A stretch of DNA of 64,000 nucleotides from Gemmatimonadales bacterium (lineage in GTDB: Bacteria > Gemmatimonadota > Gemmatimonadetes > Gemmatimonadales > GWC2-71-9): assembly GCA_044869265.1 (NCBI GenBank), contig JBIOXD010000050.1, forward strand, positions 42,369 to 106,368, written 5' to 3'. A program made the position numbers and the translations under genes. Numbering within the stretch: the first letter of the stretch is position 1; each line of letters starts with the position of its first letter. Below are positions 6,458-63,669 of this stretch, one piece after another. The notes beneath the pieces are model-generated. The model was not told the origin of the DNA. It did not search any database and saw only the letters and a program-made list of their open reading frames with translations.

Positions 6458-7881
6458 TGTCCTGGCGCCGCGTTGCGTGGGCGTTTGCCATTACGTTCGT
6501 GTGTACCCTGACCGTTATTACCGTGCCGCAGCTGTTATGGAAGACCGTCACCGGTGCGGTAGCGCAGAGCCCAGCGCAGGACACGACGAAAGCGCAACCC
6601 GCTCCAACCGCGCCGCTCGCCCAGGAGCCAGCCGCTCCACAGCCAACGACCCCGCGCTCCATCGGATCGCGTTTGACCGGCTTTTTTGGACTGGTCGTGA
6701 TCTTGGGGATCGCGATCGCCTTCTCACGCAACCGCCGTGCGATCAGCTGGCGCGTCGTGGCGTGGGGCGTCGGGCTGCAGCTTCTCTTTGCGATTTTCGT
6801 GCTGCGCGTCCCCTTTGGGCAGGAGGCATTCCGGTGGCTCGGCGCCACCGTCACGACGATTCTGAACTTCTCCTACGCCGGCTCGGAGTTCGTGTTCGGG
6901 GAAATCGGCAAGCAAAGATCGAGCATCGGCGTCGTGTTCGCGTTTCAAATCATGCCGGCGATCATCTTCGTCTCCGCGCTGTTCGCGATCATGTACTACC
7001 TCGGCATCATGCAGGTCGTGGTGAAGGCGTTGGCGGTGGCGATGAACAAGATCATGGGCGCGAGTGGCGCGGAGAGCCTCAACGTCGCGGCGTCGATCTT
7101 CATGGGGCAGACGGAGGCACCGCTCACGATTCGGCCGTTCCTGCCACGCATGACGATCTCCGAGCTGATGACGGTGATGACGGCGGGCATGGCGCACGTA
7201 TCGGGATCGATCATGGCGGCCTACATCGCCTTCGGCATCGAAGCGCGCCACCTGCTCACGGCGGTGATCATGACGGCGCCGGGGACGATCATGATGGCCA
7301 AGGTCCTGGAGCCTGAAACGCAAGTCCCCGAAACGCGCGGCACGGTGACGGTCAACATCCCGCGCACCGATGTAAACGTGCTCGACGCCGCGGCGCGCGG
7401 AACCAGTGAAGGCTTGCACCTCATGCTCAACGTGATCGCGATGCTGATTTCGTTTATCGCACTCATCGCGCTCGTCAACGGATTGTTCGGTTGGATCCAT
7501 GGTTTTGTGCCGTGGTTCCCTGAGACACTCCAGACCGTGCTCGGCTGGATCTTCCGTCCAATTGCATGGGTGATGGGTGTGCCGTGGCACGACAGCGGAG
7601 CTGTCGGCGCATTGCTGGGCGAGCGCATGGTTATCAACGAGTTCATCGCCTACGCGCATCTCGGACCGATGAAAGGCACGCTCGATCCGGTCTCGTTCAC
7701 GATCGCCACATTCGCGCTGTGCGGTTTTGCGAACCTGAGCTCAGTGGGGATTCAAATCGGCGGCATCGGCGCACTCGCGCCGGAGCGCAAGCACGACCTG
7801 GCGCGTCTGGGCTTCCGGGCGATGATCGCCGGGACTCTGGCCAATTTCCTCTCGGCGACGCTGGCGGGAATTCTTTTGTAA
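6457..7881 (+). CDS. nupC: NupC/CNT family concentrative nucleoside transporter
   Basis: Polytopic membrane protein with CNT-family blocks: GLVVILGIAIAFSRNRRAISWRVV, FAFQIMPAIIFVSAL, ESLNVAASIFMGQTEAPL and FALCGFANLSSVGIQIGG. The ATG at 6457 overlaps the add stop (TGATG). Confidence 0.85.
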   Translation: MSWRRVAWAFAITFVCTLTVITVPQLLWKTVTGAVAQSPAQDTTKAQPAPTAPLAQEPAAPQPTTPRSIGSRLTGFFGLVVILGIAIAFSRNRRAISWRVVAWGVGLQLLFAIFVLRVPFGQEAFRWLGATVTTILNFSYAGSEFVFGEIGKQRSSIGVVFAFQIMPAIIFVSALFAIMYYLGIMQVVVKALAVAMNKIMGASGAESLNVAASIFMGQTEAPLTIRPFLPRMTISELMTVMTAGMAHVSGSIMAAYIAFGIEARHLLTAVIMTAPGTIMMAKVLEPETQVPETRGTVTVNIPRTDVNVLDAAARGTSEGLHLMLNVIAMLISFIALIALVNGLFGWIHGFVPWFPETLQTVLGWIFRPIAWVMGVPWHDSGAVGALLGERMVINEFIAYAHLGPMKGTLDPVSFTIATFALCGFANLSSVGIQIGGIGALAPERKHDLARLGFRAMIAGTLANFLSATLAGILL

Positions 7882-8726
7882 TGGGGCCTGGGGCCTGGGG
7901 CCTAGGGCCTGGGGATGTGAGTGACGCTTCGGCTGCGGTCCGAATGCATCTGGGGAAGCACAAACCGCGGGTCGCGATCGTCCTCGGCTCCGGCCTGGGA
8001 TTCCTCGCTGATGAAGTAGAAAAGCCGATCCGCATCACGTACAGCGCGATTCCCGGTTTTCCAGAGCCTGGAGTCGCTGGTCACAAAGGCGAGCTGGTTG
8101 CCGGGACGCTCGAGAAGGTCCCGGTGATCGTCCAGGCCGGACGCTTTCACCTTTATGAGGGCCATTCAGCCGCAACGGCGGGGCTACCCGCCCGCGTGTT
8201 TGGCGAGCTCGGCGTCGAGATCCTGATCGTGACCAACGCCGCGGGAGGCGTGCGGCGCACGTTCCAGGGCGGGACACTGATGCTCATCGCCGATCACATC
8301 AATCTCATGTGGCGCAATCCACTCGCCGGCCCGGCGCAGCCCGGCGAACAGCGCTTCCCTATCATGCACGATCCATACGACCGCGACCTGCGCGACCTCG
8401 CCCGAACCGTCGCCCGCGACCAGGGGATCGCGCTCGAAGAGGGTGTGTACGCCGCCCTGCTCGGCCCCTCCTATGAGACGCCTACCGAGGTTCGGATGCT
8501 CGAGCGACTGGGGGCGGATGCGGTCGGAATGTCCACCGTGCCGGAGGTGCTCGTGGCGCGCTCGCGGGGCATGCGCTGCCTGGGCTTCTCCATTATTACA
8601 AACCCCGGGGCAGGAATCACCAGCGAGGCCCTGTCCCACGAAGATGTCCTGGCGGTGAGCCAACAAGTGGCCCGCCGCTTGTCCGTCCTACTAAGAGGAA
8701 TCCTGGGCCGGTTGATCTTGGGTTAA
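7881..8726 (+). CDS. punA: Purine nucleoside phosphorylase (trimeric PNP / inosine-guanosine phosphorylase family)
   Basis: VAIVLGSGLG, GHKGELVAG, GRFHLYEGH, NAAGG and MSTVPEV motifs. The ATG at 7881 overlaps the nupC TAA (TAATG). The true start could instead be the GTG at 7917, downstream of the GGGGCCT repeat. Confidence 0.88.
   Translation: MGPGAWGLGPGDVSDASAAVRMHLGKHKPRVAIVLGSGLGFLADEVEKPIRITYSAIPGFPEPGVAGHKGELVAGTLEKVPVIVQAGRFHLYEGHSAATAGLPARVFGELGVEILIVTNAAGGVRRTFQGGTLMLIADHINLMWRNPLAGPAQPGEQRFPIMHDPYDRDLRDLARTVARDQGIALEEGVYAALLGPSYETPTEVRMLERLGADAVGMSTVPEVLVARSRGMRCLGFSIITNPGAGITSEALSHEDVLAVSQQVARRLSVLLRGILGRLILG
7883..7914. repeat. Heptanucleotide tandem repeat (GGGGCCT)x4 plus a terminal GGGG
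   Basis: Direct reading: ggggcct ggggcct ggggcct agggcct gggg, located exactly at the nupC|punA junction. Confidence 0.95.
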
Positions 8727-15366: not shown

Positions 15367-16530
15367 ATGGCTAACCCCTTCGAAGGCCTCTTCGATTCCG
15401 GCGACGTGCTCGAGCGCGTCGGTATCGACCTCACGGCGCAGGCGCGTCGCGGCGACCTCGAGCCGGTGCGCTGCCGGGACGCCGAGATCGCGCGCGTCAT
15501 TGATATCCTGCTGCGGCAGGGAAAAAACAACGCCGCGTTGGTGGGGCGCGCCGGCGTCGGCAAGACCGCGGTGGTCGAGGGATTGGCGCAGCGGATCGCT
15601 TCGGGCAACGTCCCGCCGGCATTGAAGGACGCTCGCGTGCTGGGGCTGGACCACGTGTCGATGCTCGCGGGAACGTCGTTCCGTGGGCAGTACGAGGACC
15701 GCATCCGGCGGCTGGTGCAGGCACTGCAGGCCGATCGCAATCTCATCCTCTTTGTCGACGAGCTCCACAACCTCATCGGGCAGGGGACTGCGATGGGGGC
15801 GGCGATGGACGCCGCCAACATGCTGAAGCCCGCTCTCGTGCGCGGAGACATTCGCGTCATCGGCGCGACCACCGGCGAGGAATACAACAAGTGGGTCAAG
15901 TCCGATCCCGCACTCGAGCGTCGCTTTCAGCCCGTCACCATCGAGGAGCTGGACGCCATTCAGACCTGGGAGGTGCTGGTCGCGCGGAGACCACGCTTCG
16001 AGCGCCATCACGCCGTGGCGATCTCGGACGACGCGCTCAAAGCGGCGATTGTGTTGACTGACCGGTTCGTTCCGGAGCGCGCTCGCCCCGACAAAGCGAT
16101 CGACGTGCTGGACGAAGCCTGCGCACACGCCCAGGCCACGGCGCAGGTATCGCCGGAGCTCGACAAGCTGATTCGCGACCGCAAGAAGCTCGAAGCGATG
16201 ATTCGGCGCGGGGCGACAGAAGAAGAGACGCGTGCTCCCGACGAGCCTTTGCCCGATCTTGCAACGGTGTTGCAGCGGTTTGGGGAAGAGATCGAAGAGC
16301 TGTTGGGCGGGCGGAAGCGGTCGAGGGCGGACGAAGGCGGTCCTGAGGTTCCGTCCTCGCCCGCCTCCGACCGCCCTCGTCCGCCTCCGACCGCCCTCGA
16401 CGAGCAGCGCGCCGACCTCGACGGCCGCCTCCGCGCCGAGCTCGAACGCCAGGGCATTGTGGTTACCGGCAAGGAAATCGCTCGGGTGGTCGCCGCAGCG
16501 GTGGGGAAGGGCATCGAGTGGGCCGGCTGA
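15367..16530 (+). CDS. Clp/Hsp100 D1-only AAA+ ATPase (no N-domain, no D2)
   Basis: Starts just before D1 (DLTAQARRGDLEPVRCRDAEIARVIDILLRQGKNNAALVG). Walker A GRAGVGKTAVVEGLA, Walker B LILFVDELHNL, VIGATT, ERRFQPV. Ends with VTGKEIARVVAAAVGKGIEW, which resembles the D1/D2 junction motif of ClpA/B/C. Confidence 0.8.
   Translation: MANPFEGLFDSGDVLERVGIDLTAQARRGDLEPVRCRDAEIARVIDILLRQGKNNAALVGRAGVGKTAVVEGLAQRIASGNVPPALKDARVLGLDHVSMLAGTSFRGQYEDRIRRLVQALQADRNLILFVDELHNLIGQGTAMGAAMDAANMLKPALVRGDIRVIGATTGEEYNKWVKSDPALERRFQPVTIEELDAIQTWEVLVARRPRFERHHAVAISDDALKAAIVLTDRFVPERARPDKAIDVLDEACAHAQATAQVSPELDKLIRDRKKLEAMIRRGATEEETRAPDEPLPDLATVLQRFGEEIEELLGGRKRSRADEGGPEVPSSPASDRPRPPPTALDEQRADLDGRLRAELERQGIVVTGKEIARVVAAAVGKGIEWAG
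16322..16400. repeat. Decamer array: 2 x CGAGGGCGGN-type units, ~20-nt spacer, then 4 inverted units including a 20-nt tandem duplication. Lies inside a CDS.
   Basis: cgagggcgga cgaaggcggt ... ccgcctccga ccgccctcgt ccgcctccga ccgccctcga. Positions 16361-16380 and 16381-16400 are 19/20 identical. Confidence 0.9.
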
Positions 16531-24436: not shown

Positions 24437-24441
24437 CTAAT

Positions 24442-24540
24442 CGAGGGCGGTCGAGGGCGGACGATGGCGGGCGAGGGTGTCAAGCAGCACATAGAAAGCT
24501 ACCGCCGTTGACCGCCTTCTACCGCCCTTGACCGCCCATT
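24442..24540. repeat. Two facing arrays of four 10-bp units (CGAGGGCGGN x4, ~20-bp centre, then ACCGCCNTTG-type x4)
   Basis: tcgagggcgg tcgagggcgg acgatggcgg gcgagggtgt ... accgccgttg accgccttct accgcccttg accgcccatt, in the polX / TonB-receptor divergent intergenic region. Confidence 0.9.
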
Positions 24541-24600: not shown

Positions 24601-27600
24601 ATGCTGCGCAAGCTTCTGGGGCCGGTGTTCCTGGCTCTCGCGTTTCCCGTCGTTCTCGCCGCGCAATCGCAGGCTACGACCGGTGTCGTTCGCGGTACGG
24701 TCACGGATCCAGGCGGCGCGCCGGTTGCGGGCGCTACAGTGAGTCTGCGCGAAACGCAAACCGGCTTTCAACGGCAGGTCACGAGCAACGAGCGTGGCAT
24801 CTTCATCGCTTCGCTCCTTCCGCTCGGCACGTACGAGATCACGGCACGCGCTGTCGGCTTCGGCGAGTCGCGCCGTACTGGGGTTCGAGTAGGCGTCGGC
24901 GAGACCCTGAATCTGAACCTTCAGCTCGCGGCGGTGACGCTGCAGGCGGTGGTCGTCGAAGCGACGCAGCCGATCGTCGAGGTGACCAAGGTGGAGAGCT
25001 CGACCCGCCTGCCCGAGGAAGCGGTGGCGCGTCTGCCCAATAACGGGCGTAACTACCTGAACCTCACGCTCTTGACGCCCGGCGTGGCGGTCGTGCAAGG
25101 GCCGGACGGCGACGAGATCTCCATCGCCGGCCAGAAGGGAATCCATAACAACGTGTCGGTCGATGGGGCCGACTTCAACAATCCGTTCTTCGGCGAGCAG
25201 CGCGGAGGTCAACGTCCGCCATTCACATTCAACCTGGACGCTGTCGAGGAGATGGTGGTCACTGCGAACGGTGCCAACGCCGAGTTCGGGCGCTCGGGCG
25301 GCGGGTTCGTGAACGTGGTGACCAAGTCGGGGACCAACGAGCTCCATGGATCGTTGCACTATTACGGCAAGGACGGCGCGCTCTCGGGCCAGCCGCATTT
25401 CCAGGACGTGACGTTGCCGGCGCCCGACTTCACGCAGCACCAATTCGGATTCACACTCGGCGGACCGATCAAGCGCGACAAGGCTTTCTTCTTTGTCGCG
25501 TACGATCAGCAGATCTTCGACGAGGTGAAGCAGACCGATCCCAACCGCATCGATCCCGCGTTGCGTGCCTGGATGGACACAGCGTTCGGCGGCGCGCTGG
25601 CGGGCGATTACGGTCCGATTTCACGAACCAACGATGCACGCGCGCTACTGGCAAAGCTCGATTTCAACCTCTCGGATCGGCACCGTGCATCGCTGAAGTA
25701 CAACTACAGCTGGTCGGAGCAGGTGAACGGCACATTCGACGTCGACAGCTGGGCTCGCAGCGCGAATGGGTTGGAGCGGGATCACTCGAACGCAATCAAT
25801 GGCAGCCTCATGTCGATCCTGTCGCCGCGCGTCTCGAACGAGTTCCGCTTCCAGTTTTCGCGTGAAGACCGGCCGCGTCCGTACGGCGGTCCCCGGAGCA
25901 CGCTGCTGGGGGCTGACCCGACCGGCACAGGCGATCGGCCGTTCCCCGACGTCGCAATGGACTTCGCGAACGGGTATCGGTTCGGCCTGCCGTTCTTCCT
26001 GCCGATCGACTACTACGACACGCGGATCCAGGTCCTGGACAACATCTCGTTTCAGAAAGGGGACCACTTCTTCAAGGTGGGTGCCGAGTACAACCGGGTG
26101 AACTCGGTGCAGACGTTCATCGGGTTCTCGAACAGCCGCTACATCTTCAGCTCGGTGCAGGGATTCCTGAATTATGTCGGGAGCGACTCCCTCTACGTCG
26201 AATGCTCCGACGGCTCGTCGAACTTTACCGGCGCCTGCCCCGGCACCACCACGATCACCGGCCCCGTGCTGCTATATCTGCAACAGGCCGGCGTGGACCG
26301 GTCGGTGCGCGAGGCCGGCACGCAGGAAATCCCGCAGACCGAGCTCGCAATCTACATCCAGGACACGTGGAAGCCCAATTCCAAGTGGCTGTTCAACTAC
26401 GGGTTCCGTTGGGAAGCACAGATCCAGCCGGGCTTGTTGTCGCCGCGCGACTCAGTGTATTACGCCGTCTACTACGATTCGACTGTGACCAACTCAAACG
26501 GAACGTTCCGCTTCCCGTCGGACGGCACAATCCCGTCTGACAAGAAGATGTTCCAACCGCGGCTGGGCGTCACGTTTGACCCCAAAGGGGACGGCCGTCA
26601 GGTGTGGCGGGCCAACGCGGGGATCTACTACGCACGCATACCAGGGTTGAACCTGGCATCCACGCGATCGACGGACGGTTACCGCGGCGTCACGCTGTTC
26701 GGCTCGAGCGCGACGGTGGGATTTCTCCCGCCGCCATCCTTCCCGAACCTGTTCCCGTCGAACGTGCCGCTGGCGTCAGTCGCATTCCCTTCGGTGTTCG
26801 TGTTCGATCGCAACTTCTCAAACCCGCGTACCATCACCGCGACGCTGGGCTACGAGCGGCAGATCGGGGGCGATCTCGGGCTGCTGCTCAGCTACACGCA
26901 TGCGAAGACCGATCACAACACGCGCTTCATCGACCGCAACGCGGCGGTCTTCGGCGCCCCGTTCGGCACCGGGCCGCGTGCGCTGTCGACCCTGACGACG
27001 GTTGAGGCAAGCGCCAAGTCCAACTACAACGGCGTCACCGTGGGTCTGCGGCGCGTGCTCGACCCCAACTTCCAATTCCAGGCGAACTACACGCTGTCGT
27101 GGGACAAGTCGGACGACGACAACGAGCGGGATCCGTTCACCTTCCGGTACGCGCGCGCGGATAACCTGGCTCCAGAATACAACTGGAGCGATCGCGACCA
27201 GCGGCACCGGTTCAATGGCTGGGTGCTCAAGCACATCGGCGGCGGCCTGTTCCTCAACAGCCGCCTGAGCATCTACTCGGCACAGCCCACCTCGGAGAGC
27301 TGCGGCCCCAGCCCCTTCAGCCCCTTCGCGCCGCCGAGGGGCCAGCGCGCGACCTCTCCCGCCGATCGCAATTGTGCCGACGGCTCCGTCCTGACGCGCA
27401 ACACGATGCGCAAGGACAACGACTATCTCTCACTGGACCTGGGTCTGACGTGGCCATTCAGCATCGGTCGCGGCCGTATGGAAGTGATCGCGCAGATGTT
27501 CAACGTGACTGGCTCGGCCAACTTCAAGGATCCCGCGGCGACGAGCTTGCTGTTCAACTTCGACGGCACGCTGCGCAGCGGGTACGGTGATCCGCAACAG

Positions 27601-27630
27601 GCGCAGCTCGGGGTGCATTACGTGTTCTGA
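24601..27630 (+). CDS. TonB-dependent receptor, Oar-like (carboxypeptidase-regulatory N-domain, plug, large beta-barrel)
   Basis: Signal peptide. TTGVVRGTVTDPGGAPVAGATVSLRETQTG (CarboxypepD_reg), then NYLNLTLLTPGV...QKGIHNNVSVDGADFNN plug-like region. 1009 aa, C-terminal ...LGVHYVF. Confidence 0.85.
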   Translation: MLRKLLGPVFLALAFPVVLAAQSQATTGVVRGTVTDPGGAPVAGATVSLRETQTGFQRQVTSNERGIFIASLLPLGTYEITARAVGFGESRRTGVRVGVGETLNLNLQLAAVTLQAVVVEATQPIVEVTKVESSTRLPEEAVARLPNNGRNYLNLTLLTPGVAVVQGPDGDEISIAGQKGIHNNVSVDGADFNNPFFGEQRGGQRPPFTFNLDAVEEMVVTANGANAEFGRSGGGFVNVVTKSGTNELHGSLHYYGKDGALSGQPHFQDVTLPAPDFTQHQFGFTLGGPIKRDKAFFFVAYDQQIFDEVKQTDPNRIDPALRAWMDTAFGGALAGDYGPISRTNDARALLAKLDFNLSDRHRASLKYNYSWSEQVNGTFDVDSWARSANGLERDHSNAINGSLMSILSPRVSNEFRFQFSREDRPRPYGGPRSTLLGADPTGTGDRPFPDVAMDFANGYRFGLPFFLPIDYYDTRIQVLDNISFQKGDHFFKVGAEYNRVNSVQTFIGFSNSRYIFSSVQGFLNYVGSDSLYVECSDGSSNFTGACPGTTTITGPVLLYLQQAGVDRSVREAGTQEIPQTELAIYIQDTWKPNSKWLFNYGFRWEAQIQPGLLSPRDSVYYAVYYDSTVTNSNGTFRFPSDGTIPSDKKMFQPRLGVTFDPKGDGRQVWRANAGIYYARIPGLNLASTRSTDGYRGVTLFGSSATVGFLPPPSFPNLFPSNVPLASVAFPSVFVFDRNFSNPRTITATLGYERQIGGDLGLLLSYTHAKTDHNTRFIDRNAAVFGAPFGTGPRALSTLTTVEASAKSNYNGVTVGLRRVLDPNFQFQANYTLSWDKSDDDNERDPFTFRYARADNLAPEYNWSDRDQRHRFNGWVLKHIGGGLFLNSRLSIYSAQPTSESCGPSPFSPFAPPRGQRATSPADRNCADGSVLTRNTMRKDNDYLSLDLGLTWPFSIGRGRMEVIAQMFNVTGSANFKDPAATSLLFNFDGTLRSGYGDPQQAQLGVHYVF

Positions 27631-27633
27631 TAC

Positions 27634-27725
27634 GGCGACGCTACGATAAGGCGACGCTATAAAAGAGCGACGCTAGGAGAAGGCGAGTTCGTTCCTCCTA
27701 GCGTCGCTTTTTTCCTACCGTCGCC
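27634..27725. repeat. GGCGACGCTA-type units: three direct, then two inverted copies
   Basis: ggcgacgcta (27634), ggcgacgcta (27650), agcgacgcta (27666), tagcgtcgc (27699), taccgtcgcc (27716). Confidence 0.85.
27667..27713 (+). terminator. Rho-independent terminator (13-bp stem plus T6), probably bidirectional
   Basis: GCGACGCTAGGAG (27667-27679) pairs with CTCCTAGCGTCGC (27695-27707), followed by TTTTTT. On the opposite strand the hairpin is followed by CTCTTTTAT. It lies between two convergent genes. Confidence 0.8.
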
Positions 27726-28558
27726 TAGCTTACAGTTACCTGTTTCACCATCCCGTGCACAAAATGCGGTGCGCCGTCATTCGTGTCGGGCACGTAGCAG
27801 AGGAAGAGATAGTTGCCCGGGGTGAAGGTCAGCGTCACCCAGCCCACTTTGCCCTTATCGGGCCCGGCGAAGCCCCCGACGGGCACTGAGACCGGCTCGC
27901 CCTTCATTCCTCCGGACATCCAGCGCCGCCAGTCAGCAAGTGTCTTGCCCGGCGCCAGGCGTTCGATCGTGAGCTCATGGAGCTGCGGCCCCGTGTTCTC
28001 CACCCGGATCGTCCGCGTTCCCGCGGTGAGCGGGGTCGATTGTTCGAACGCGAAGTCGGAGAGGGTCACCGTGAGGTCGGCCTTGGGCTCGGCAGCGGCC
28101 GCGCGCGAGGGCGGAGCAATTACGACCAGTCGACGGAACATTCCCTTTTTCACGTGCTCCGTTCCGTCCGGGCTCGGAATGAAACACACAATTTCGTAGT
28201 TGCCCGGCTTCAGATTCGCCGTGATGATCGAGCTATCGCCGCCCAGCACGACACCGGGGCCGCCGGGAAAGGTCGGTTCGATCTTGAGGAACGCCTGCCA
28301 CCATTCCGCCTGGGACGGCCTCGGGGCCGCGGCAGCCTCCAACTCCTCGAATGTCTTCCCTGGCGCCCCGAAGATCACCGCCTGGTGCGGCTCGCGGCCG
28401 TGATTCACCATCCGAAACGTCGTGAGTCCCGCCACGATCGTGTCGGGGGCACCGAAGGCGAAGTCGGTTGCGGTTATCGTCACGACGGCTGGCGGCCTGG
28501 CTGGCTTGGGAGAACACGCGATAGAAAAGAGAGCTAATAGTGTGATTGCTCGGGACAA
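27725..28558 (-). CDS. Lipoprotein with two tandem cupredoxin-like domains (putative type-1 copper sites)
   Basis: Signal LLALFSIAC. Two internally similar halves, each ending GNYEIVCFIPSPDGTEHVKKGMF / GNYLFLCYVPDTNDGAPHFVHGMV, with an upstream His (NHGREPHQ / GPQLHEL). Confidence 0.6.
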   Translation of the reverse strand: MSRAITLLALFSIACSPKPARPPAVVTITATDFAFGAPDTIVAGLTTFRMVNHGREPHQAVIFGAPGKTFEELEAAAAPRPSQAEWWQAFLKIEPTFPGGPGVVLGGDSSIITANLKPGNYEIVCFIPSPDGTEHVKKGMFRRLVVIAPPSRAAAAEPKADLTVTLSDFAFEQSTPLTAGTRTIRVENTGPQLHELTIERLAPGKTLADWRRWMSGGMKGEPVSVPVGGFAGPDKGKVGWVTLTFTPGNYLFLCYVPDTNDGAPHFVHGMVKQVTVS

Positions 28559-28678
28559 GGCATCTCCTGGTAAGTAGAGGCGTTGATTGAACGGCGTTTA
28601 ATGAACGGCGTCGAAGGGAATACGTCAAAATCGAAGACGTCGCAAGAGACGTCGAGAAAAAGACGTGTTGACGACGTA

Positions 28679-29047
28679 TCAGCGGTCCGGAGGAGGATGG
28701 TGGTAGAGACGGGTGAGCATCTTGAGAGTGAGCACGGTACCGCTCTGCAGAGAACGAATTGTTGACCGTTGCTCCTCGGATGTGGGAGCGATGATTCGGA
28801 GCAGAGCAAGCGTTTCCTGGGCTGATCCCCGCGCGTGAAGCATGAAACGTCGAAAGTCAGGAACCGTGCCCCGTCCACAGCCCTCCGCGATGTTCAGACC
28901 GATTGACGTCGAGGCGCGGACGAGCTGATCAGCCCGTGCCAGTGCGCCCGGTCCGCGGAGGCTATGAGCCAGGACGGCGCAGCCCTTCGCGACATGCTCA
29001 GCGACCTGTACAACTCGAAGCCTGGCGGGGTTGGCGCGCAGCACCAT
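28679..29047 (-). CDS. Four-helix-bundle protein (23S rRNA intervening-sequence protein / Avd-like family)
   Basis: QLVRASTSIGLNIAEGCGRGTVPDFRRFMLHARGSAQETLALL matches the conserved core of the TIGR02436 / PF05635-type family. About 120 aa. Confidence 0.8.
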   Translation of the reverse strand: MVLRANPARLRVVQVAEHVAKGCAVLAHSLRGPGALARADQLVRASTSIGLNIAEGCGRGTVPDFRRFMLHARGSAQETLALLRIIAPTSEEQRSTIRSLQSGTVLTLKMLTRLYHHPPPDR

Positions 29048-29090
29048 CCGGCCATGATTGTGCCAGCGAGCGCCGCAGCATCACCTTTGT

Positions 29091-29198
29091 TACGCCTTTA
29101 CGGTGTTTTTCTACGCCTCCTGCGACGCCTTTTGCTTTGACGCCTTTCCTTTGACGCCGTCTTTCGACGGTTTAAGTTTGACGAGTTTGTAGTTGACA
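29091..29198. repeat. Array of about 8 (T)TTGACGCC-like units spaced 12-21 bp, immediately upstream of tRNA-Lys
   Basis: tacgcc 29091, tacgcc 29112, gacgcc 29124, ttgacgcc 29137, ttgacgcc 29151, tcgacgg 29164, ttgacga 29178, ttgacag 29193. Confidence 0.8.
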
Positions 29199-29199
29199 G

Positions 29200-29272
<73 letters not shown>

Positions 29273-29344
29273 TAAGCGCGCTTTCGCCTCGGCTTCACGC
29301 CCCCCCGGTTGTCAGGGCGTGCCATCCGAGACAAATTGCGTAAG

Positions 29345-30208
29345 ATGTCCTCCCTCGTCTGGGTAGATGGGAAGTGGTACGACCGCGGCGCTGCGGTCGT
29401 TTCTGTATTCGACCACGGGCTCCTCTACGGCGACGGCGTGTTCGAAGGCATCCGGTCATATGGCGGCCGCGTTTTCCGCCTCGATGCGCACCTCGATCGG
29501 CTGTACGGATCCGCCAAGGCAATCTGGCTCGAGATTCCCATGGCGAAGGACGCCATGGGCCGGATGGTGGAGGAAGGGGTCGCGAAGAGCGGGCTGAAGG
29601 ACACCTACATCCGGCTGGTCGTGACGCGCGGCGTCGGCGACCTCGGCCTCGACCCGCGGAAGTGTGCCAAGCCGACCATCTTCTGCATCTTCGACAAGAT
29701 CCAGCTCTGGCCGCAGGACCGGTATGAAAAGGGGCTGACGGCGGTGACGGCGGCGACGCCGATCCATCATCGCGAAGCGTTGTCGCCGCGCGTGAAATCT
29801 CTCAATTATCTCTCGCACATTCTCGCCAAAATCGAAGGCATCGCCGCCGGCGTTGATGAAGTGATCATGCTGGACGCGGCGGGCTATGTGGCCGAGGCGA
29901 GCGGGATGAATCTGTTCGCGGTCACAAACAGCACGTTGCGCACGCCGCCGCCCTATGCCGGCATCCTGCGCGGCGTAACGCGGGACACGGTGATCGAGTT
30001 GGGACGCGAGGCCGGCTACACGACCGAAGAGTTGCCGATGAATCGCTACGATCTCTATACCGCGGACGAAGTGTTTCTCACCGGCACGGCCGCCGAGGTC
30101 GTCGCCATTTCGAAGCTCGATGGCCGCGCCATCGGGTGCGGTGCGTCCGGTCCCGTCACGCGCGATCTCGCCACTCGCTTCAAGGCTTTCGTGAGCCGCG
30201 ACGACTGA
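29345..30208 (+). CDS. ilvE: Branched-chain amino acid aminotransferase (class IV)
   Basis: MSSLVWVDGKWYDRGAAVVSVFDHGLLYGDGVFEGIRSY...RLDAHLDRL, and KSLNYL (catalytic Lys region). ATG at 29345 within ORF 29309..30208. Confidence 0.9.
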   Translation: MSSLVWVDGKWYDRGAAVVSVFDHGLLYGDGVFEGIRSYGGRVFRLDAHLDRLYGSAKAIWLEIPMAKDAMGRMVEEGVAKSGLKDTYIRLVVTRGVGDLGLDPRKCAKPTIFCIFDKIQLWPQDRYEKGLTAVTAATPIHHREALSPRVKSLNYLSHILAKIEGIAAGVDEVIMLDAAGYVAEASGMNLFAVTNSTLRTPPPYAGILRGVTRDTVIELGREAGYTTEELPMNRYDLYTADEVFLTGTAAEVVAISKLDGRAIGCGASGPVTRDLATRFKAFVSRDD

Positions 30209-30317
30209 TCGCAGTTTTCCACCCACAATTGTTGAAAATAGGGCTAACCCATTGACCGGGAAGGAGCTAAGCCTCATATTGAGGGCCCTTTGCCGCCGTC
30301 CGGCGTTGAGGTGAGCC

Positions 30318-30560
30318 ATGTCATGGCGGGTGATCGCGCACGGGAATCAGGTTTGGCACGTCGACGCGGTCGCCGAGCGACGCGCGAACACGGCCGCATG
30401 GCAGCTGGTGTTGGCGTTTCGCTCGGCCTCTGAAGGCCGCCGCTTGTCGTTCTGGACCGCGTATCCGCTGGAGGCCACTTCCAAATCGTCGCTGTTCATC
30501 CAGGCCGAGCGCATTCCGGACGCGGCCTTGTCCAAAGTACTTACTGAGCGTCTCGCGTGA
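30318..30560 (+). CDS. Hypothetical protein (80 aa)
   Basis: ATG preceded by GAGGTGA (30308-30314). High GC3. GTGA overlap with the next ORF. No family recognised. Confidence 0.45.
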   Translation: MSWRVIAHGNQVWHVDAVAERRANTAAWQLVLAFRSASEGRRLSFWTAYPLEATSKSSLFIQAERIPDAALSKVLTERLA

Positions 30561-53837: not shown

Positions 53838-54484
53838 GGCGCGCTTCGTCCCTTGCCGAGAATCCGCGCTCCAAACCCCAGCGTCACGCGATGTACCAGC
53901 TGCGCGGATGTGAAGCCGTCGGCATGCAGCGCGGGAGTCGAAAACCGATGCAAGTCATAGCGCAGCGACACCCCGAAGTCGTGGGCGGGCCCTCCCAGCT
54001 TGGTCGGGGACCAGTAGAGACCGGCCGTGCCGACGGCCCAGAGCCCGGAGCCGCCTCGAAACAATCCGGTTTCATCAGCGGGCAGATACTTGATGCCACC
54101 GATCCCCACGCGCGCCGCCAGACTGGGACTGACTTCACGACGCGCCCCGACCGTGAAGGCGATCACCGTCACAGAGTTGAATTTCGCCGCCTCACCGCTC
54201 TCGTGGCGCTGTAATGCCGCCCACGACACGTCGAGAACGGCTTCGGGTGTCCAGGGGCCGTTCGTGCGCTCGCCGATGCTCAGCGCGAGCACCGGCCCGA
54301 TAGCGGGCTTCGCATCGACGGGCTCGACGATCACGTCGTGCACGAGAGCCGTCGTATAGCGAGCGCCGACGGTTGCGTGAACGGAAGCCTGGGCGGCCGG
54401 ACGGCCCGACGGCCAGACGGCCAGGGCGGTCAGCAGAATGAGCGTGTGTGCGGCCGTCCGGCCGTCCGACCGTTCGACCGTCAA
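53834..54484 (-). CDS. Small outer-membrane beta-barrel protein (OmpW/porin-like, family not resolved)
   Basis: TTG start overlapping the znuB-like stop (TTGA). Signal LILLTALAVWPSGRPAAQA. Alternating beta-strand pattern. Confidence 0.5.
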   Translation of the reverse strand: MTVERSDGRTAAHTLILLTALAVWPSGRPAAQASVHATVGARYTTALVHDVIVEPVDAKPAIGPVLALSIGERTNGPWTPEAVLDVSWAALQRHESGEAAKFNSVTVIAFTVGARREVSPSLAARVGIGGIKYLPADETGLFRGGSGLWAVGTAGLYWSPTKLGGPAHDFGVSLRYDLHRFSTPALHADGFTSAQLVHRVTLGFGARILGKGRSAP

Positions 54485-59561: not shown

Positions 59562-59580
59562 GGGATGAACTATAGCCGCG

Positions 59581-59728
59581 TGCGCCGTGCGCCGTGAGCC
59601 GTACGCCGTTGCCATTCCGGCGCACTGCGCACGGCTCACACCGCACGTTTTAGGGCGGCGCACTGCGGACGGCGCACGGCGCGCGTTTTAGTCCGGCGCA
59701 CTGCGCACGGCTCACGGCGCACGTTTAG
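59581..59728. repeat. ~37-bp tandem repeat x3 (built from GCGCAC-type heptads, each ending CGTTTTAG) preceded by one inverted partial copy
   Basis: Units at 59617-59653, 59654-59691 and 59692-59728 (ccggcgcactgcgcacggctcacaccgcacgttttag and variants). An inverted copy gcgtgcgccgtgcgccgtgagccgtacgcc lies at about 59579-59608. Confidence 0.9.
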
Positions 59729-62467: not shown

Positions 62468-63669
62468 TTGCCCGGATCCAGCGCGATGCCGCCCTGGCCC
62501 CGGATCTCGAAGTGCAGGTGCGGACCCTCGTCGCTCGATTCACCACCCACGTGGCCGATTACCTGTCCACGGATCACACGTTCTCCCTGCCTGACCGTCG
62601 CATCGTTGAGATAGGCGTACACCGTGTAATAGCCGCCGCCGTGGTCGATGAGCACCGACGTGAGATACAGTCCGAGGCTTCCCGCGAGACTGACCGTCCC
62701 GGGCGCGACGGCGCGAACCGCGGTTCCCACCGGCGCCTTGATGCCGATCCCATGGCGCGGAATGCGCGTGTTGTTGGGCCCCGTCGTCGTCCCAAACGGG
62801 TAGATGATCTGCCCCTCGACCGGCCAATCGAGGGCGCCGAGATCCGCCGTGGTAATCGATCCCGTCGCTGCGGTAGTGCCGCGCGACTCGGCTTCGCGCC
62901 GCGCCCGTTCCAGCGCTTCGATCCGGTCGTTGAGCGTGCGCTCGTCCCGCTCGAGTCGTGTGAGCCGCTGCTGCGCCTGACGGGCGCTGCGTCGTGTTTC
63001 GCGAAGGCTGCTCTCGCGCGCCTGCTCGAGCGAGACGTAGCGCCCGAGCTCGTCGGTCCGCTCGCGCCGGCGGCGGGCCAGCGTTTCGCGCGAGTCGACC
63101 AACAGCTGTCGCTGGCGTGCCACGCGGTCGCGCAGCTTTTCAACATCGTTGGCAAGCAGGCGGTCCTGGCGACTCACCAGACTGAGATACTTATACCGCG
63201 AGAGGAGGTCCCCGAAGCTCTCGGCCGCGAAGTAGACCTGCCAGCTGTAGAGCGGCCCGCGCTTGTAAATCTCGACGAAGCGCCGTTCCAGTACGGCGCG
63301 CTTTTCGAGCAGTGCATCTTGCGCGATCAGCAGATCGACCGTGATCTGATCGATCTGCCCGCCAAGCCCCGTGATCTGGCGGTCCAACTCGTTGACGATG
63401 CGATTCGTGCTTTGCCTCTGACGCTCGATATTCGAGATCTCGTCAGTGAGCGAGTGTGCCTGAGTGCGCAACCGGGCCAGCTCCTGCTCTACTTGCGACC
63501 GCTCGCGCCGGATGTCCTCGAGTCGGCGCTGGTTGTCCTGCATTTGCTGGTGGTAGGTCGGGCGCTGGGCGTGCAACGGGACACGGGAAACGGGAAACGT
63601 GAAAAGCACGAGACAAGTGACAAGCAGCCCCGTGTCCCGTTTCCCGTTTCCCGCTTCCCGTGACTTCAT
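62416..63669 (-). CDS. envC: EnvC-like coiled-coil M23 peptidase-domain protein
   Basis: Long coiled coil, then an M23/LytM domain (HGIGIKAPVGTAVRAVAPGTV...IDHGGGYYTVYAYL...GPHLHFEI). ATGA overlap with ftsX. Confidence 0.85.
   Translation of the reverse strand: MKSREAGNGKRDTGLLVTCLVLFTFPVSRVPLHAQRPTYHQQMQDNQRRLEDIRRERSQVEQELARLRTQAHSLTDEISNIERQRQSTNRIVNELDRQITGLGGQIDQITVDLLIAQDALLEKRAVLERRFVEIYKRGPLYSWQVYFAAESFGDLLSRYKYLSLVSRQDRLLANDVEKLRDRVARQRQLLVDSRETLARRRRERTDELGRYVSLEQARESSLRETRRSARQAQQRLTRLERDERTLNDRIEALERARREAESRGTTAATGSITTADLGALDWPVEGQIIYPFGTTTGPNNTRIPRHGIGIKAPVGTAVRAVAPGTVSLAGSLGLYLTSVLIDHGGGYYTVYAYLNDATVRQGERVIRGQVIGHVGGESSDEGPHLHFEIRGQGGIALDPGNWLRAPRPRATRPSTPR
63578..63660. repeat. 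Inverted heptad arrays: GGGACAC GGGAAAC GGGAAAC, 32-nt spacer, GTGTCCC GTTTCCC GTTTCCC GCTTCCC
   Basis: Direct reading of 63578-63599 and 63632-63660. The arms can pair over 21 nt with 2 mismatches. They lie in codons 4-31 of envC. Confidence 0.9.

Follow-up and report, generated by a model that had tools for sequence, protein, structure and literature searches.

In the 64,000-nucleotide (nt) stretch of Gemmatimonadales DNA analyzed here (contig JBIOXD010000050.1 of assembly GCA_044869265.1, positions 42,369 to 106,368; hereafter, the window), a small gene of the PF05635 family lies in the loop between two mirrored arrays of short repeats, beside a gene for tRNA-Lys. Gene and arrays form a cassette of about 620 bp, inside which this small, non-enzymatic open reading frame (ORF) is the only one. 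The two arms belong to the gene and not to the tRNA, they are conserved, the same architecture recurs across the family, and close relatives differ in whether they carry the cassette at this site. We read it, with a confidence that stands midway between doubt and certainty, as a free-standing, long-resident cassette of the type known from the intervening sequences (IVSs) of ribosomal RNA (rRNA), that is, as a PF05635 gene nested in an imperfect palindrome of mirrored sub-repeats.

Mirrored arms around a PF05635 gene

An earlier note on this stretch, made from the sequence alone, had reported facing arrays around the gene, and these turned out to be more pronounced than described. The upstream flank aligns locally with the reverse complement of the downstream flank with a score of 48 (shuffles, 16.8; z = 13.6), and the 55-nt inverted repeat within the arms is the longest that a repeat search found in the whole window (coordinates of all features are given in Table 1). 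Each arm consists of eight units of 12–15 nt with the core ACG[TC]C, mirrored one for one with an equal spacing pattern, and features specific to single units, such as those of a ...CGTCGCA(A/G)GAG unit and a ...GAAAAA unit, are mirrored as well. The terminal inverted repeats enclose the ORF and can form a stem that includes short tandem repeats; in minimum-free-energy folds, the arms pair on both strands.

On the + strand, the units of the left arm read, in order, GGCGTT, GGCGTT, GGCGTC, TACGTC, GACGTC, GACGTC, GACGTG and GACGAC, spaced 8–15 nt apart (GGCGT at 28579, 28593 and 28607; TACGTC at 28621; GACGTC at 28636 and 28648; GACG at 28662, 28670 and 28673). All the units listed in the earlier note are present, although the one at 28579 had been missed. 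On the coding (−) strand, the left arm is pyrimidine-rich, with more C than G, and the right-arm units (ACGCC at 29092, 29113, 29125, 29140 and 29154; GACGG at 29166; GACGA at 29180; TTGACA at 29193–29198) read as GGCGTCAAA followed by a purine-rich spacer. The 9-mer TTTGACGCC is not enriched over the window as a whole (20 matches, with 19 expected); what distinguishes the arms is their local clustering and mirror symmetry, not the abundance of this word. The GC content falls in the flanks only (0.49 and 0.53), so the low-GC pocket noted before holds for the arms but not for the gene itself, which at 0.63 is close to the window (0.645, or 64.5%). The terminator-like hairpin past the stop codon is composed of two of the GACGTC units.

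The arms follow the gene among Gemmatimonadales orthologues

A genome scan yielded 24 Gemmatimonadales loci (L001–L024) with orthologues that are 45–80% identical. Most of them carry CGTC-type units upstream and the inverted form downstream, L003 and L023 having no clear upstream array, and the flank alignment score was at least 28 in 17 of the 23 scorable loci, with L003, L005, L013, L018 and L023 below it. Only three of the 24 loci adjoin tRNA-Lys. The contexts number at least five: besides tRNA-Lys, they are a glutamine-synthetase-like gene with a divergent lipoprotein gene, gatB, PIN/sigma-70, and DUF1611/ABC/cysS. The arrays thus accompany the gene into tRNA-free surroundings, and gene and both arms are one cassette, as the earlier note had supposed. 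The opposite possibility, that the gene was inserted into a pre-existing hairpin, was rejected, because the gene takes its unit type along into new contexts and the ORF-less forms described below keep remnants of the ORF. An invertible segment was discarded too, as the loci within each of the contexts A and B share one orientation.

The bases beside the ACG[TC]C core differ by clade yet change together on both sides of the gene, giving the matched unit pairs GGCGTCAAA with TTTGACGCC, GGCGTAAGG with CCTTACGCC, and GACGTTGCAC with GTGCTACGTC. When eight type-A loci, the type to which the window belongs, were aligned, 91% of the arm-to-arm cells were complementary, compared with 27–54% in slid controls. 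Changes on both sides were seen in 9 of 50 pairs, and covariation reached 0.160, against 0.124 in shuffles (0 of 500 reached the observed value). Identity between arms is 0.83 within a locus and 0.78 between loci; there is moderate evidence in the sequences that the arms of a locus evolve in concert. In related loci the downstream array ranges from 3 to 10 units, some of these arrays being near-perfect tandem repeats. The upstream arms of the type-A loci of the window, L001 and L024 align unit for unit, retaining both the number of units and their spacing, and the number of synonymous substitutions per site (dS) between the window and most of the type-A orthologues compared is above 1.

Two of these loci deserve a remark. 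At the tRNA-Lys site of L024 (2495–2893; metagenome-assembled genome [MAG] AG14), the orthologue is split over two frames, by a frameshift that made it a pseudogene or by an assembly error, and its apparent identity is for that reason merely 48%. At L008 (about 2372–2470), as well as in the other type-B loci among L004–L022, the upstream arm, read as its reverse complement, seems to code for the signal peptide of the divergent lipoprotein (...RRFCSTLLLFLCLAC); if this overlap is real, the outward strand of the arm, which is rich in pyrimidines, is coding sequence as well.

Filled, empty and ORF-less states of the tRNA-Lys/ilvE site

The corresponding site was compared across 80 metagenomic ilvE loci with 73–98% identity, in which the empty site that the earlier note had proposed to look for was indeed found. 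Filled sites match the window; for example, the protein of L081 is 97% identical. At empty sites, a methyltransferase gene starts about 45 nt from the tRNA, there are no arrays, and the tRNA has a different promoter (...TATCTTtcggccacc; ..TATCTT). A third group has arrays without the gene: L114 retains the outer four units of each arm, and L109, in which the downstream arm, the outer upstream units and a trace of the stop codon have been left, is a deletion derivative. Among relatives with an IlvE about 85% or more identical to that of the window, the three states occur intermixed, so that the site is polymorphic for presence and absence of the cassette. In a more distant clade (IlvE about 76%), no locus is filled, all being empty or not scorable. 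Since the empty arrangement is alike in both clades, we take it as ancestral and the filled one as the insertion. No target duplication is visible when filled sites are compared with empty ones.

The window and L081 differ at 16% of synonymous sites, and their upstream arms are 99% identical. Judging from such comparisons, the upstream arm, home to two putative promoters, is strongly constrained. For the downstream arm, constraint over short distances is not clearly indicated.

L108 (1896–2414) is a case of local rearrangement, with tRNA-Lys on the opposite strand and a partial four-helix-bundle gene between the tRNA and ilvE.

The same architecture in other phyla

To what extent the arms are a property of the family was assessed in a survey of 77 PF05635 loci from many phyla, with 411 segments of the same size, displaced by 0.8–1.9 kb in related loci, as controls. 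Flanking inverted repeats scoring at least 28 were present in 44 of the 77 PF05635 loci (57%) and in two of the 411 controls (0.5%). Outside the Gemmatimonadales clade, the arms are plain tandem 7- to 10-mers, for example GGGTCAGA, TGGTTTG, GGTATTA, TCAGCTA and GGTAATT. Units are unlike among unrelated loci and shared by close orthologues, and the period varies between 7 and 16 nt. In a single MAG, two paralogues whose proteins are 74% identical and whose contexts differ share the unit type, which indicates that the arms move with the gene.

The G-rich arm comes first in 39 loci and second in 3. The polarity of an inverted repeat is identical on both strands, so this order belongs to the hairpin, not to the direction of the gene; for the same reason it was abandoned as a clue to gene direction. 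Of the 48 loci outside Gemmatimonadales, 33 lie in sense orientation between co-directional genes and eight are antisense; the end of the upstream gene is no more than 60 nt away in 19 of these 33. This position would make the ORF part of a common transcript, with both arms on one RNA. At L075, the predicted stem encloses the entire ORF. Three-arm variants were also encountered, at L029 and L033 (from the same MAG) and at L163, in the order G-type arm, ORF, second G-type arm and C-type arm. There the C-type arm has two possible partners, with which it would form either a short terminator-like hairpin past the ORF or a long-range stem around it.

Our literature searches returned no description of flanking arrays around PF05635 genes outside rRNA, the heptamers of Coxiella, discussed below, set aside.

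The gene and its product

The assignment of the 122-amino-acid protein to the family that unites the 23S rRNA IVS proteins with Avd of diversity-generating retroelements (DGRs), made in the earlier note from the sequence alone, was borne out by profile matches above cut-off to PF05635 (63 bits; cut-off, 33.8) and TIGR02436 (66 bits; cut-off, 24) and by the fold. An AlphaFold (AF2) model with a mean predicted local distance difference test (pLDDT) score of 93 shows four helices in a bundle. In Foldseek, its best matches by template-modeling (TM) score were 2GSC (0.82–0.89) and 2RLD (0.72–0.80), and the DGR Avd structures 4DWL and 8UB7 scored about 0.65–0.74. A profile of 32 orthologues matched 2GSC (E = 5.7e-10) and 2RLD only, both of them structural-genomics entries. 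Of the motif (G)xxRxxxSxxxNxxE described for the family (PMC3936711), the window protein has R44, S48, N52 and E55, invariant or at least 90% conserved, and lacks the leading G. No known DNA-binding motif was found in the protein by profile and literature searches.

The ratio of nonsynonymous to synonymous substitution rates (dN/dS) between the window gene and its orthologues is 0.08–0.16, and by this measure the protein is kept under strong purifying selection. Gemmatimonadetes MAGs and soil metagenomes supplied the closest homologues of both this gene and the neighboring ilvE. A look-up of the exact protein gave no identical record, and PADLOC found no defense-family match. A second family member seemed to be indicated by a weak tblastn match at 7730–7882, which is spurious, since it falls inside a gene for a NupC-like transporter. 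Beside that match, directly past the stop codon of the transporter gene, the heptamer TGGGGCC is repeated 4.7 times (7882–7914).

Putative promoters, tRNA-Lys and neighboring genes

The gene is flanked at its 3' side by the cupredoxin-like lipoprotein gene, on the − strand, and on the other side by tRNA-Lys and ilvE. In an Rfam search of 27500–30500, the tRNA alone was above threshold, and the cassette is thus not inside an rRNA gene.

When the 80 nt 5' of the ATG were aligned in 23 loci, a promoter-like block was conserved in position: the innermost unit, AGGCGTnAAAA, is followed directly by G(G/A)TGAC, then by a spacer of 16–18 nt and by TAnnnT or CAnnAT, which ends 5–9 nt before the ATG. 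This positional conservation suggests a promoter of the gene's own in the interval from the right arm to the ATG. No Shine-Dalgarno sequence precedes the ATG of the window gene, so a leaderless or almost leaderless mRNA would be expected, and a promoter in this position would leave the upstream arm outside the mRNA in the Gemmatimonadales clade. On the tRNA side, the block TTGAC[GC]-ccgtctttcgacggtt-TA[AC][GC]TT, with its 16-nt spacer, is conserved in filled loci only, its distance to the tRNA being constant, which makes it likely that the outward-facing TTGACG unit of the arm serves as the −35 element of tRNA-Lys.

The start codon of ilvE is probably ATG 29345 (MSSLVWVDG...) and not TTG 29309, as many homologues align only from residue 13. 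The block of genes beside the cassette is itself variable. A relative (L161, GCA_041499375.1) has the fuller order of tRNA-Lys, four-helix-bundle gene, LCM methyltransferase gene and cupredoxin gene, with a TonB-receptor gene facing them; the window (27725–28558) is without the methyltransferase gene, and some relatives are without the cupredoxin gene.

Table 1. Features of the cassette and its surroundings (coordinates of the window)
Feature	Coordinates	Strand	Description
Left arm (downstream of gene)	28579..28678		About 100 nt, eight units; mirrors the right arm unit by unit
Inverted repeat, left half	28605..28659		Ungapped; 55 nt, 76% complementary
Terminator-like hairpin	28636..28653	−	GACGTCtcttgcGACGTC then TTCGATTTT; two palindromic units, about 25 nt past the stop codon; from a consensus scan only
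Four-helix-bundle gene	28679–29047	−	ORF call; coding sequence of 122 amino acids; PF05635/TIGR02436; isoelectric point (pI) 11.4
Promoter-like block of the gene	29057..29085	−	GGTGAT (29085–29080), 17-nt spacer, CACAAT (29062–29057); ends 9 nt before the ATG
Right arm (upstream of gene)	29086..29198		About 113 nt; eight or nine (T)TTGACGCC-type units, + strand
Inverted repeat, right half	29106..29160		Ungapped; 55 nt, 76% complementary
Likely tRNA-Lys promoter in outer right-arm units	29151..29178	+	TTGACG (29151–29156), 16-nt spacer with CCGTCtttcGACGG hairpin, TAAGTT (29173–29178)
tRNA-Lys(UUU)	29200–29272	+	tRNA search; adjoins the right arm, divergent from the gene

ORF-less hairpins

The window also contains intergenic hairpins without an ORF, at 16305–16396, 24441–24537, 27629–27722, 54394–54482, 59579–59726 and 63570–63660. 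In each, a tandem array of 7- to 16-nt units faces its own reverse complement across a loop of 20–85 nt, and each has its own unit (GGGCGGnCGA, TCGAGGGCGG, GGCGACGCTA, CGTGCGC, AACGGGA and others). Over 564 kb of Gemmatimonadales DNA, 22 periodic hairpins were counted, with the G-rich arm first in 18 and second in 3. A dozen related loci contain the 10-mers GACGGTAA; in L098, L109, L117 and L119, the hairpin follows closely on the stop codon of a TonB-receptor gene. These elements may be relics of cassettes or a separate class of terminators. An Rfam match to mir-5881 on both strands of 27653–27722 was dismissed as a sub-threshold artefact of the palindromic hairpin between the convergent TonB-receptor and cupredoxin genes.

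Possible mechanism and competing explanations

A mechanism can be sketched by analogy with rRNA IVSs and from the majority of relatives, which are embedded in operons. The arms on one strand would pair and loop out the gene. In most relatives, where the cassette would be co-transcribed with the co-directional genes around it, they would form a long RNA stem around the ORF, and this stem, like those of rRNA IVSs, would be a substrate of RNase III, thanks to which the host transcript would tolerate the insertion. In the lineage of the window, the cassette would have been inserted between the methyltransferase/cupredoxin block and tRNA-Lys, replacing the −35 region of the tRNA promoter, a role that the outer TTGACG unit would now fill; the gene would be expressed from its own promoter, with the left arm supplying terminator-like hairpins. 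Inheritance would be mostly vertical, with occasional relocation and with decay by internal deletion to ORF-less arrays. We infer pairing of RNA or DNA as the working form of the arms, as well as the participation of RNase III and the assignment of the promoters; in molecular terms, the arms could act as an RNA stem, as a DNA stem or as a binding array for the basic protein.

Several observations weigh against an IVS-type cassette. Between the window and L081, identity is 0.85 for the left arm and about 0.84 for synonymous sites, so the left arm evolves at about the synonymous rate. The covariation between the arms was measured on eight related sequences only. Mismatches between the arms show no excess of G-U on either strand (43 sense wobbles, 33 antisense wobbles and 66 transversions; in other phyla, 28, 30 and 52), so that pairing as RNA is not specifically supported; as a test for the transcribed strand, the comparison of G-U with A-C mismatches showed no asymmetry and neither supports nor excludes RNA pairing. 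At the window locus itself, with a predicted promoter between the right arm and the ATG and a divergent tRNA abutting the arm, no transcript would plausibly carry both arms, and a scan of the region with the strict sigma-70 consensus found no promoter. Finally, no recombinase, target duplication or near-identical second copy was found, and mobility is therefore deduced from the several contexts and the empty sites only. The mobile origin proposed in the earlier note fits these two lines of evidence, but a recent horizontal arrival is unlikely given the host-like GC content, the low dN/dS and the conserved synteny.

The main rival takes the arrays as operator- or iteron-like sites for the encoded basic protein, a pentamer in solved relatives, which would coat them, regulate its own promoter and the divergent one of the tRNA, and perhaps bridge the arms, in the way of the small centromere-binding proteins of plasmids that act on repeat arrays around their own operon. 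We consider it possible, though doubtful. The high pI and strong purifying selection of the protein suit such a role, as do the right arm, far more conserved than synonymous sites, and the innermost unit GGCGTAAAAA, which in all orthologues stands directly upstream of the −35-like element. The unit type tracks the clade of the protein and is shared by the two paralogues of one MAG, the mismatch spectrum is DNA-like, and the fold matches the 8UB7 complex. Avd proteins, to which this fold is related, bind nucleic acid and reverse transcriptase. On the other hand, a period of 7–16 nt with unrelated units across the family would be hard for one fold that reads double-stranded DNA, and no DNA-binding motif is known in the family. 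Independent binding sites would not need to be mirrored unit by unit, spacing included, and the ORF-less periodic hairpins, with other units, persist without the gene in cis.

We regard it as improbable that the cassette is a non-autonomous transposable element whose arms are terminal inverted repeats with sub-terminal sites for a transposase encoded elsewhere, its place beside the tRNA reflecting target choice. Long terminal inverted repeats with internal sub-repeats, empty sites and at least five contexts for orthologues 64–80% identical would be in keeping with transposition, and so would the PF05635 genes that are wedged inside cas operons (PMC3936711). Both ends of the window cassette also carry outward-facing −35-like hexamers. 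Such hexamers are common at the ends of insertion sequences. However, the arm sequence differs at nearly every locus, which leaves no common site for a transposase, and the subfamily occurs once per genome among the loci returned, with no second copy in the window. Filled and empty sites share no duplicated flank, as those of a transposon or of a miniature inverted-repeat transposable element (MITE) would, no transposase or integrase gene is adjacent, synteny is conserved, and the GC content is host-like. The resemblance to the multi-site subterminal repeats of transposable cassettes, suggested earlier, is accordingly weak, the unit sequence and its period of 7–16 nt varying at nearly every locus. 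Nor did the idea of a tRNA as a classic integration site hold: the cassette is found on the promoter (5') side of the tRNA, not at its 3' end, and is bounded by no att-like direct repeat and no repeat of the tRNA 3' end, no integrase accompanies it, and most related cassettes are tRNA-free, so it cannot be classed as a tRNA-targeting integrative element.

Similarly unlikely, in our estimate, is that the arrays have no function of their own, being products of replication slippage and palindrome homogenization or long terminator and promoter DNA of the neighbors, including stacked −35/UP elements for tRNA-Lys. The variable copy number and near-perfect tandem repeats of downstream arrays, the near-synonymous rate of the left arm over short distances, the abundance of G-rich-first periodic hairpins in the intergenic DNA of the clade, and the probable use of one unit as the tRNA −35 could all be explained in this way. 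It does not account for an association with PF05635 of 57%, against 0.5% in controls, across phyla with unrelated neighbors, nor for the strong polarity bias (39 to 3), the tRNA-Lys sites empty of any array, or the type-A upstream arms of the window, L001 and L024, whose unit number and spacing are kept despite a dS above 1 for most. The narrower version, in which the arrays are simply the promoter of the tRNA, is ruled out by these array-free empty sites together with the cassettes that have no tRNA nearby.

A bolder extension of the IVS-type reading, which we offer as speculation and think rather unlikely to hold in full, is that PF05635 genes with mirrored arms make up a widespread, so far undescribed intergenic "gene-in-a-hairpin" class across bacterial phyla, the free-living source of ORF-bearing rRNA IVSs and of many ORF-less periodic hairpins. 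For its maintenance or spread, an element of this class would depend on the basic pentameric protein, which would recognize the arms of its element in the form of RNA or single-stranded DNA, and spread might use an RNA intermediate, given the kinship with Avd.

The origin of rRNA IVSs and the role of the protein that some of them encode have been open questions since the early 1990s, and to our knowledge no function is known for the PF05635 family, despite its great size and the dispersal of its members through operons, cas loci included. A hairpin architecture general to such a family makes it possible to test the question of IVS origin outside the ribosome: wherever the gene is located, a mirrored hairpin typically surrounds it, this hairpin moves with it and decays to ORF-less forms, and empty sites exist. 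For such tests, the arms can be offered as substrates, the basic protein as candidate ligand, and the filled, empty and relic sites as natural alleles. A practical caution is that the arrays rebuild neighboring promoters and may pass for regulatory repeats or for repeats like those of CRISPR loci.

Comparison with known systems

Four known systems invite comparison. The partition centromeres of plasmids (parC of R1; parC1/parC2 of pB171) are arrays of short repeats around the par operon. The cassette resembles them in having a small gene with repeat arrays on both sides, to which the gene product could bind, and one array abutting a promoter; it differs in having no partner NTPase, in being a single chromosomal copy, and in that its arrays are inverted mirror images instead of independent sets of direct repeats. 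With non-autonomous transposons (Tn7/Mu-type ends, CACTA elements and MITEs with passenger genes), it shares inverted ends with sub-repeats, outward −35-like hexamers and empty-site polymorphism. Unlike them, it has no shared end sequence, target duplication or, in its immediate neighborhood, cognate transposase, and it combines one subfamily copy per genome, among the loci returned, with long vertical inheritance.

Avd of DGRs works on structured RNA together with a reverse transcriptase. Like Avd, the product of the window gene is a small basic protein with a four-helix bundle (TM about 0.65–0.74), yet in sequence it is closer to the non-DGR members 2GSC and 2RLD, and the flanking genes (cupredoxin-like lipoprotein, tRNA-Lys and IlvE) include no reverse transcriptase; a pair of template and variable repeats was not looked for.

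The closest known system is the ORF-bearing IVS of 23S rRNA, as in Coxiella burnetii (the S23p IVS) and Leptospira. In the Coxiella IVS, which contains the S23p ORF, the inverted repeats at the two ends make a 28-bp stem that is cut by RNase III and that includes two to three GACAGAT heptamers, their copy number varying between strains, and the ORF appears to be decaying and untranslated (PMC4990558). ORF-less versions of rRNA IVSs exist, and their presence among relatives is sporadic (PMC4990558, PMC11270868); insertions in the rRNA of candidate phyla radiation bacteria likewise contain PF05635 ORFs, and the family was described in that work as functionally uncharacterized (PMC11270868). The kinship with rRNA IVSs that the earlier note had mentioned is thus real: the protein family is the same, PF05635, and the ORF likewise sits in the loop between terminal inverted repeats, and the stem made partly of short tandem repeats, the ORF-less versions and the sporadic distribution all have their counterparts in the cassette. 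The window element differs in its intergenic location, beside a tRNA and a lipoprotein gene, which sets it apart from IVSs as defined by their place within rRNA, and in its arms, which are built of 12- to 15-nt units and are about four times longer than those of Coxiella (about 100–113 nt, compared with 28 bp). Also in contrast to the decaying ORF of Coxiella, the window gene has a probable promoter of its own and is under strong purifying selection.

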